From NCBI RefSeq assembly GCF_003334335.1, contig NZ_QOWQ01000020.1: 64,000 nt of DNA. One strand, given 5' to 3'. This document shows positions 31,857 to 32,770 of this stretch, one piece after another. The first letter of the stretch is position 1. The number at the start of each line of letters is the position of its first letter. Below the pieces are notes generated by a model. That model was given only the letters and a program-made list of their open reading frames with translations, was not told where the DNA came from and searched no databases. The DNA comes from Escherichia coli (GTDB taxonomy: Bacteria > Pseudomonadota > Gammaproteobacteria > Enterobacterales > Enterobacteriaceae). A program made the translations under genes and the position numbers.

Positions 31857-31950
31857 AAAATAAATATATTCTGAAAAAATATGCCGACTCTTGCATGAGA
31901 GTGGGCATATTGCCATGCTGACCGGAGACTCATACAAGGATGTAAAATTT

Positions 31951-32331
31951 ATGTTACGTATATTTATCCCAACATCTAACGGTAAGATTTCCAGACGTCG
32001 TTATATATTTTCATTTATTTTAATAAATTTCATTTTTGCCTTTCTTATTATCTTTTTTAACGATGGAGAAGCAGGCTTTCTTGTTATAGTCTCTACCATC
32101 GTACTCCATTATCTCGTCATCAACATGAATTGCCAGCGACTCCGTGATAGTGGTTTCATCTATATAAAAACTTATGTTTTTGGTACATTAGCAGTATATA
32201 TCATCTCTATCATCACAATGATAGCCGAAGATTTTGCCTGTTCAGGCAATGGTTCGATGATTTTTTTGATTTGTTATTTTTCCACTTTCAGTATGCTAAT
32301 GCTTGCACCTACTGATTCATCAAAACAATAG
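31951..32331 (+). CDS. yigF: small inner membrane protein YigF (DUF805-like), function unknown
   Basis: 126 aa from [22 protein letters not shown]; AT-rich coding sequence; hydrophobic helices. Confidence 0.75.
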
Positions 32332-32344
32332 TTATGGAGTATTT

Positions 32345-32725
32345 ATGAGTAAGGAATATATGAACGATGGTTCATTAAGTGAAAAATGGAAATACCGATT
32401 TAATTTTTATGATCAACATGGTTTTCCTGGATTCTGGGGGGCAACACCAGAATATAAAGCAGCATTTAAAGCATTAAAAGTAAGACAACGCTTAACTATT
32501 CAAATGAATTTCATTGCTTTCTTCTGTTCCTGGATATATTTATTTGTCCTGGGGTTATGGAAAAAAGCAATTATAGTTCTATTACTTGGTATTCTATCTC
32601 TATTTGTTGGTGCACTAATTGGCGTTAACATTCTGGGAATTGCCGTAGCAGCCTATGTTGCTGTTAACACGAACAAATGGTTCTATGAGAAAGAGGTAAA
32701 AGGGTTAAATACCTGGAGCCTTTGA
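32345..32725 (+). CDS. yigG: small inner membrane protein YigG, function unknown
   Basis: 126 aa from MSKEYMNDGSLSEKWKYRF; AT-rich; 13 nt after the yigF stop. Confidence 0.75.
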   Translation: MSKEYMNDGSLSEKWKYRFNFYDQHGFPGFWGATPEYKAAFKALKVRQRLTIQMNFIAFFCSWIYLFVLGLWKKAIIVLLLGILSLFVGALIGVNILGIAVAAYVAVNTNKWFYEKEVKGLNTWSL

Positions 32726-32731
32726 ATAACA

Positions 32732-32770
32732 GGTGGCTTAGCCAGACTAAGCCACCGCTCTCGTTTTTTA
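32732..32770 (+). terminator. intrinsic terminator after yigG (shared convergent gap with corA)
   Basis: 10-bp stem GGTGGCTTAG/CTAAGCCACC, 5-nt loop, then GCTCTCGTTTTTT. Confidence 0.65.

Follow-up and report, generated by a model that had tools for sequence, protein, structure and literature searches.

Xenogeneic islets silenced by H-NS and the promoter islands of Escherichia coli K-12 have been described by several groups (Panyukov and Ozoline, 2013; Singh et al., Warman et al., Grainger laboratory; occupancy domains, Freddolino laboratory), and yigF/yigG is a listed example. Here, we analyse this islet at positions 31857-32770 of a 64,000-nucleotide stretch of E. coli DNA (assembly GCF_003334335.1, contig NZ_QOWQ01000020.1; hereafter the window), where it lies between rarD and corA. 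A 663-bp promoter island named 'yigF/yigG' is bound by H-NS in all chromatin immunoprecipitation data sets and is foreign by two prediction methods (PMC3661553, Table 1), and promoter islands as a class are suppressed in mRNA synthesis (PMC3661553). An extended protein occupancy domain spans yigF, yigG and rarD (bioRxiv 10.1101/2020.01.29.924811), and yigG contains an intragenic promoter that is repressed by H-NS (PMC7229825). The primers published for the corresponding 'yigG 1.2' fragment map to positions 32102-32251 of the window, on the plus strand. Like the known H-NS-silenced islets, the locus is AT-rich and patchily distributed, with reported H-NS binding, transcriptional suppression and spurious intragenic promoters, and we find no difference from them. 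The initial annotation of the window, which had proposed that the islet is a likely H-NS target, is thus borne out by the literature. Its reading as acquired, H-NS-bound DNA is right, but essentially already known, and the islet alone, as a textbook-style case of H-NS-silenced foreign DNA, adds little. New here are the corrected gene order, the conserved yigG-yigF module and the multi-allelic state of the rarD/corA gap.

A second described system is found in the same gap of other genomes. DUF3289/DUF943, a colicin-M-like toxin of the type VI secretion system with its immunity protein (Mol Syst Biol 2024, PMC11148199), is, like yigG-yigF, a two-gene AT-rich accessory cassette; it is absent from the window. 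The two cassettes share no sequence similarity (tblastn, NCBIfam), and yigG-yigF has no toxin-like partner. The protein families closest to YigG and YigF are DUF805 and DUF2628, respectively. In the literature, we found no mechanistic study of DUF805 or DUF2628, and no E. coli phenotype for the pair beyond screen lists.

We consider it probable that yigG-yigF is a horizontally acquired, H-NS-silenced operon for an inner-membrane pair that works together in an envelope role. According to this model, a 0.9-kb AT-rich two-gene cassette would have arrived between the convergent genes rarD and corA through horizontal transfer and, having no mobility genes of its own, would probably move via homologous recombination of the conserved flanks. 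H-NS would keep the pair largely silent in K-12. YigG and YigF would be co-translated and would work as a heteromeric inner-membrane complex, which may have a dispensable, niche-specific role in the envelope and no core function.

Composition and gene order of the islet

The islet is the stretch of lowest GC content in the window, at 34.6% compared to a mean of 52.8% (z = -5.8, based on a standard deviation of 3.1% (0.031) over all 914-nt windows of the 64-kb stretch). The 300-nt GC profile is flat at 0.32-0.35 across 31800-32700, rarD and corA are at ~0.50-0.55, and values return to ~50-55% within ~200 nt on either side of the islet. The GC content at third codon positions (GC3) is 0.31 and 0.29 in the two open reading frames (ORFs) of the islet, and 0.62 and 0.63 in rarD and corA. 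Therefore, the foreign composition is real at synonymous sites and goes beyond an amino-acid effect. Runs of A/T of at least 8 nt are 6.5 times denser in the islet than in the window (14.2 versus 2.2 per kb), and F, Y, M, I, N and K together account for 45% and 38% of residues in the islet proteins, compared with 25-31% in the flanking proteins. The low GC content, long A/T runs and skewed residues noted in the initial annotation are all confirmed, as are its two adjacent ORFs, the A/T-rich region in front of them and the strong terminator behind them, which are described below. A simple sigma-70 consensus scan gave 2 sites, fewer than the 4.3 found in shuffled sequences, and therefore fails to recover the published promoter island, for whose definition different software had been used.

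The two genes encode 126 residues each, are located on the plus strand at 31951-32331 (yigG) and 32345-32725 (yigF), and are 13 nt apart. The order yigF-yigG given at first is the reverse of the actual one: the RefSeq/PGAP annotation of MG1655 assigns the name yigG to the gene next to rarD, and yigF to the one next to corA. Primers published for yigG also fall within the first gene, and the islet therefore reads yigG-yigF. Derivatives of MG1655 are 100% identical to the window over 1.2 kb around the islet, which identifies the window as E. coli K-12. Both genes have names in RefSeq, in line with the earlier description of a catalogued pair of y-genes that does not constitute a new system.

The spacer between the genes (32332-32344, plus strand), with the sequence TTATGGAGTATTT, contains GGAG as the Shine-Dalgarno sequence of yigF. 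The pair is preceded by a 94-nt leader or promoter region with 36% GC (31857-31950, plus strand), which is kept in genomes of the Nissle type. Downstream of yigF, a bidirectional intrinsic terminator hairpin is found at 32732-32756, with arms GGTGGCTTAG/CTAAGCCACC that form a perfect 10-bp stem (-17.5 kcal/mol) followed by a T-run. Located between the stop codons of the convergent genes yigF and corA, which share it, the hairpin scores as a terminator in either orientation.

The left anchor of the islet is rarD (30966-31856, plus strand; ORF list and RefSeq annotation), which encodes an EamA-family transporter and is 82-100% identical in 80 Enterobacteriaceae species. The right anchor is corA (32768-33718, minus strand; ORF list). 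The local gene order is pldA (minus strand), yigI (plus), rarD (plus), yigG, yigF and corA (minus), followed by yigE and uvrD. The leader region also contains a hairpin at 31878-31911, 22 nt past the rarD stop codon, with 14-nt arms that are 93% complementary. This hairpin is kept where yigG-yigF is lost, and it could be a terminator of rarD or a regulatory structure.

Predicted structures and families of YigG and YigF

YigG scores 255.6 bits against the NCBIfam equivalog model NF008474 (PRK11371), above the cut-off of 217. The AlphaFold model of YigG, with a mean predicted local distance difference test (pLDDT) score of 80.9, is a four-helix membrane bundle, in agreement with the hydropathy profile. 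YigG is thus predicted to be an inner-membrane protein with four transmembrane helices, and would represent a narrow, divergent DUF805-like family. Judging by hydropathy and positive-inside charges, the two termini are probably cytoplasmic; the conserved NCxRLRDSG loop is then predicted to face the cytoplasm, and the conserved E..(F)DC.G.G loop the periplasm.

DUF805 proteins (the YhaH/YhaI type in E. coli) resemble YigG in being small multi-pass membrane proteins with a basic N-terminus, and in the R-x-(R/H)-D-x-G loop that follows their second helix. However, the profile match is marginal. Pfam DUF805 (PF05656) matches K-12 YigG with E = 0.023, and among 10 relatives of YigG the E-value is at or below 0.001 in three and at or below 0.1 in eight, with a best value of 5.8e-5. 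The YigG family itself is tiny: among 1.84 billion representative proteins searched with a profile, it amounts to 29 clusters. A Foldseek search of AFDB50 with the YigG model returned YigG-type proteins, all other matches having E > 3, and no distant DUF805 members were among the matches; the DUF805 label occurs on three of the matches, which are fragments from Salmonella with 57-69% identity to YigG.

YigF matches Pfam DUF2628 (PF10947) with E = 5.2e-10 over model positions 9-91 of 93, and its homologues in the databases carry precomputed matches to PF10947. Based on the AlphaFold model (pLDDT 88.1, predicted template modelling score 0.80), YigF is predicted to be a DUF2628 membrane protein with an N-terminal helical region of ~55 residues and, beyond it, a hydrophobic region whose two long helices span residues 72-92 and 96-117. 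The motifs KWxxRFxF in the N-terminal helical region and GLWKK in the hydrophobic region, as well as the C-terminal YxKxxK, are invariant from E. coli to Pseudomonas. Despite the motifs KWxxRFxF and GLWKK that YigF has in common with Pseudomonas members of DUF2628, the genomic contexts differ: the enterobacterial branch always occurs with an upstream YigG-like gene and is fixed at rarD/corA, whereas the members in Pseudomonas and Pantoea stand alone in other contexts. A Foldseek search of the PDB with the models of both proteins gave no match with E < 1.

We found no support for an assignment of the pair as a type VI effector-immunity pair or as an anti-phage defence system: PADLOC and PHROGs gave 0 matches for YigG and YigF, and the gap contains no toxin-like ORF. 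In a phage collection, two short unannotated records (1.6 and 3.5 kb) were the only matches, and in a plasmid collection both proteins were matched in E. coli and Salmonella records only. In the 'plasmid' records from Salmonella and Kosakonia that we inspected, the surrounding genes are the chromosomal set pldA-yigI-rarD-corA-uvrD, which suggests chromosomal DNA under a plasmid label.

Pairing and selective constraint

A DUF2628 gene is found directly downstream of the YigG-like gene in every YigG-like locus found, down to ~30% identity of YigG, with the exception of the O157-type cassette described below. The pairing holds at a locus where LacI-type and MR/MLE-type genes are located between rarD and the pair. 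In every lineage examined, the reading frames and the spacing of both genes are kept, down to ~30-50% identity. The ratio of nonsynonymous to synonymous divergence (dN/dS) is 0.16-0.27 for yigG and 0.04-0.15 for yigF, with both ranges taken across pairs of lineages in which synonymous divergence (dS) is saturated. Both genes are under purifying selection, and we conclude that the pair is a real, constrained two-gene module. From the adjacency, co-orientation, tight spacing and purifying selection, we infer that YigG and YigF are co-translated and act jointly, most likely in the form of a heteromeric complex in the inner membrane.

The same evidence bears on the possibility that the two ORFs are non-functional, either as decaying remnants or as chance ORFs in AT-rich, H-NS-silenced DNA, which we regard as very improbable. 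The region is silenced in K-12, mRNA synthesis from promoter islands is generally suppressed, and inactivated copies are seen in the form of an internal stop codon in yigG, IS1 insertions, a deletion of ~0.9 kb in 931 E. coli genomes and a truncated yigG in Enterobacter sp. E76, all of which speak for this explanation. However, it does not account for dN/dS values of 0.04-0.27 at saturated dS, or for the conserved frames and spacing in the lineages examined. Confident AlphaFold models for the two proteins, the Pfam match of YigF and the phenotypes of a Salmonella deletion mutant also speak against it.

The rarD/corA gap in Enterobacteriaceae

The rarD locus was compared in 80 species of Enterobacteriaceae, and the distance between the stop codons of rarD and corA was measured in the 77 that have both anchors. 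The gap is empty in 57 of the 77 species, with 43-171 bp of sequence that is REP-like (repetitive extragenic palindrome) or terminator-like, in genera that include Citrobacter, Enterobacter, Klebsiella, Raoultella, Kluyvera, Lelliottia, Leclercia and Buttiauxella. In the remaining 20 species, the gap holds inserts of several unrelated kinds. These comprise a GC-rich pair of desaturase and PhnD-like genes of 1.8-2.0 kb (loci L058, L060, L063, L065, L066 and L077) and an endonuclease/exonuclease/phosphatase-like ORF (L071 and L076) in other genera, a BrnA-like ORF in another species (L075), an AT-rich pair of ORFs of 430 and 132 residues (L067), DUF3289/DUF943 in Salmonella arizonae and diarizonae, and yigG-yigF. 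The rarD/corA gap is thus a general insertion hotspot.

The pair yigG-yigF is found in the gap of Escherichia spp., Salmonella Typhimurium, Superficieibacter electus, Intestinirhabdus alba, Enterobacter sp. E76, Kosakonia cowanii and several further lineages. Outside Escherichia, the GC content of the islet is 9-18 points below that of the flanks in all five loci measured (5/5). The initial annotation had named universal conservation of the pair with identical flanks as an observation that would speak against acquisition; instead, most species have an empty gap, and within E. coli the pair is confined to 2,963 of 5,426 complete genomes.

Positions 29000-36000 contain no tRNA gene, the boundaries of the islet have no direct repeats, and between rarD and corA there is no mobility gene, the two membrane ORFs being the only ones present. 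From the absence of these features, recombination between the flanks would be the simplest mechanism of transfer. The islet does not qualify as a classical genomic island or integrative element, as neither an integrase or transposase nor a tRNA target or flanking direct repeats are present. A scan of 30900-34200 against Rfam returned nothing at E <= 0.1.

The distribution could alternatively reflect an ancestral enterobacterial operon that was lost many times, with a low GC content that results from membrane-protein composition and relaxed codon usage. Every occurrence is at the same rarD/corA site, and this fixed location keeps the explanation alive; in addition, the identities of YigF roughly follow the relatedness of the hosts. 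We nevertheless consider it improbable. The GC3 values of 0.29-0.31, against 0.62 in the neighbouring genes, are not explicable by amino-acid content, and many independent clean losses would be needed for 57 empty sites among 77. Moreover, the alleles of K-12 and ST131 have diverged further than those of K-12 and Escherichia whittamii, and the genes are foreign by two independent published methods (PMC3661553).

The BrnA-like ORF, in the same gap of a different species, is antitoxin-like, and two tightly coupled genes for small hydrophobic proteins, placed in an accessory islet, are what would be expected of a membrane toxin with a neutralising partner. Such an addiction module, akin to toxin-antitoxin systems, is nonetheless the explanation to which we give the least credence, and we hold it to be highly improbable. 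The pair is easily lost or disrupted, as many genomes show, neither protein matches a known toxin-antitoxin family (NCBIfam, Pfam), and an over-expression clone of yigG from the ASKA set grew well enough for selection in round one of a growth-based screen (PMC10299036).

Cassettes and alleles in E. coli

To describe the gap within E. coli, we counted its arrangements in 5,426 complete genomes. The pair yigG-yigF is present in 2,963 genomes (~55%), and in ~565 of these the best match is 80-90% identical, for example in ST131. An unrelated 980-bp cassette, typical of O157:H7, is present in 1,431 genomes (~26%). In 931 genomes, rarD is followed by a remnant of yigG and then by DUF3289/DUF943 (the type of Nissle 1917), and 298 genomes have a composite of yigG-yigF, a corA' fragment and DUF3289/DUF943 (for example E. 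coli C). In any arrangement, DUF3289/DUF943 is found in 2,627 genomes (~48%); representative loci, with DUF3289 of the YPO3983 family, are L001:2627-4300, L003:3968-5310 and L007:5067-6738. The gap, which is empty in most genera, is thus a multi-allelic hotspot that E. coli fills with one of three cassettes for small membrane proteins, with or without the colicin-M-like type VI pair.

The O157-type cassette contains an ORF for a membrane protein of 104 residues on the opposite strand (L001:1701-2015, minus strand) and a YigG-like ORF of 128 residues (L001:2216-2602, plus strand), which is unannotated in that RefSeq record. The same two ORFs adjoin corA in another species (L105). Aligned with YigF by profile comparison, the 104-residue protein is unrelated (probability 3%), and the cassette as a rearranged form of yigF was ruled out on this basis.

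Gene fragments left as scars at the rarD/corA gap record an order of events. The 137 nt at the 3' end of corA (32768-32904 of the window) recur as a corA' scar in genomes that also have the DUF3289/DUF943 cassette, and in the examined genomes that hold both cassettes (composite and O157-type) this fragment separates the left cassette from DUF3289/DUF943. The remnant in Nissle-type genomes (L003:3658-3830, aligned with 31857-32038 of the window) consists of the leader and codons ~13-29 of yigG, fused upstream of DUF3289. Because codons of yigG are retained, Nissle-type genomes are deletion derivatives of the composite arrangement. Among the single nucleotide polymorphisms at the 3' end of corA, K-12 has the variant 'GCCAT' in common with the corA' fragments, which fits both K-12 as the ancestral form and K-12 as a deletion derivative of the composite.

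Several individual loci show further rearrangements. In a composite strain, yigG has an internal stop codon (L007:4252-4632), and in other genomes insertions of IS1 have deleted most of the pair (for example L006:1668-2546). Enterobacter sp. E76 has, between yigF and DUF3289, an 88-codon fragment of the 3' end of corA followed by a 70-codon fragment of the 3' end of rarD (L091:4432-4907), and this double scar has the appearance of two alternative rarD-X-corA alleles placed end to end; the yigG-like ORF of this strain is truncated to 112 residues. In E. whittamii (L009:7867-8364), yigG-yigF is followed by DUF943 without DUF3289, an orphan immunity gene.

The yigG-yigF alleles of K-12 and ST131 are deeply diverged, with dS values of 0.70 for yigG and 1.25 for yigF, compared with 0.17 for the adjacent rarD. 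The initial annotation spoke of an anciently acquired cassette. Acquisition is supported by GC3 and by the patchy occurrence, but 'anciently' is too simple, since E. coli has, at this one site, two or more allele lineages that are deeply diverged, together with a replacement cassette that is not homologous to them.

This allelic structure speaks in favour of a different function, that of a protective membrane module. The pair would then be immunity-like, acting against membrane-acting bacteriocins or type VI effectors, or would serve in phage exclusion, and its alleles, with the O157-type as an alternative version, would be kept by frequency-dependent selection. Three mutually exclusive states (the two yigG-yigF lineages and the non-homologous cassette) occur at one site at high frequency, and dS in the pair far exceeds that in rarD. 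The pair also neighbours a validated colicin-M-like effector/immunity pair, with an orphan DUF943 beside it in E. whittamii, and small membrane proteins in AT-rich, H-NS-silenced DNA are typical of accessory conflict loci. However, in the examined loci that have the pair without DUF3289/DUF943, there is no adjoining toxin gene, and DUF3289/DUF943 comes with an immunity protein of its own. Neither the defence and phage profile searches nor the phage collection, with its two short unannotated records, gave support; the papers that we found on DUF2628 and DUF805 do not call either an immunity family; and YigF is strongly conserved (dN/dS 0.04-0.15) and not diversifying. We therefore consider a protective module unlikely, although it deserves more weight than the other alternatives. 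In a more specific form of it, the K-12-type and ST131-type yigG-yigF and the O157-type pair, with its YigG-like protein and 104-residue membrane protein, would be alternative alleles that exclude one another, and would belong to an immunity-like or exclusion-like system of the inner membrane that has so far escaped recognition. Antagonists would keep these alleles polymorphic at a recombination hotspot where a type VI effector/immunity cassette also accumulates. This form is doubtful as well, and if anything slightly more so.

Role of YigG and YigF

The envelope role that we favour for the acquired yigG-yigF pair is suggested by work on Salmonella. Deletion of yigG reduced attachment to polystyrene, spinach and tomato, and reduced growth under chlorine (hypochlorite) stress (PMC3579871), and a Salmonella yigG mutant was among the hypermotile mutants of a motility screen. 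The Salmonella protein in the deletion study was reported to have '82% identity to K-12' (PMC3579871). In our comparison of the Salmonella locus (L095:2599-3378) with K-12 by tblastn, the rarD-proximal gene product is 57.6% identical to YigG and the corA-proximal one 84% identical to YigF, and the published value could be that of the partner gene.

Several observations weigh against a joint envelope role of an acquired pair. The phenotypes of the Salmonella yigG mutant are modest, and complementation was only partial (PMC3579871). Lone DUF2628 proteins, with no YigG partner, are found in Pseudomonas and in Pantoea (there on plasmids of ~0.5 Mb), from which it follows that YigF may act alone. 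A function driven by conflict would account for the deep alleles and replacement cassettes no less well than an envelope role of the housekeeping kind. Finally, YigF identity broadly follows host phylogeny, with 84% in Salmonella, 83% in Superficieibacter, 63% in Enterobacter E76 and ~50% in Kosakonia and Intestinirhabdus, and for this reason a single ancient insertion with many losses is inseparable from repeated transfer.

We hypothesize that the pair is nevertheless best described as an H-NS-silenced, acquired operon whose two products cooperate in the inner membrane. This provides a concrete handle on two long-standing y-genes, in that the conserved pairing predicts a YigG-YigF complex, and the deep alleles predict a phenotype that is specific to the strain.

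Other features of the window

Two features outside the islet were noted. Upstream of corA, at 33870-33926 on the minus strand, the window contains ysgD/corL, a leader ORF of 18 codons with a TTG start, which is annotated in RefSeq relatives. The second-lowest GC content of the window, ~41% over 914 nt, is located at ~48470-49150, in a long intergenic region between ORFs of 398 and 551 residues.

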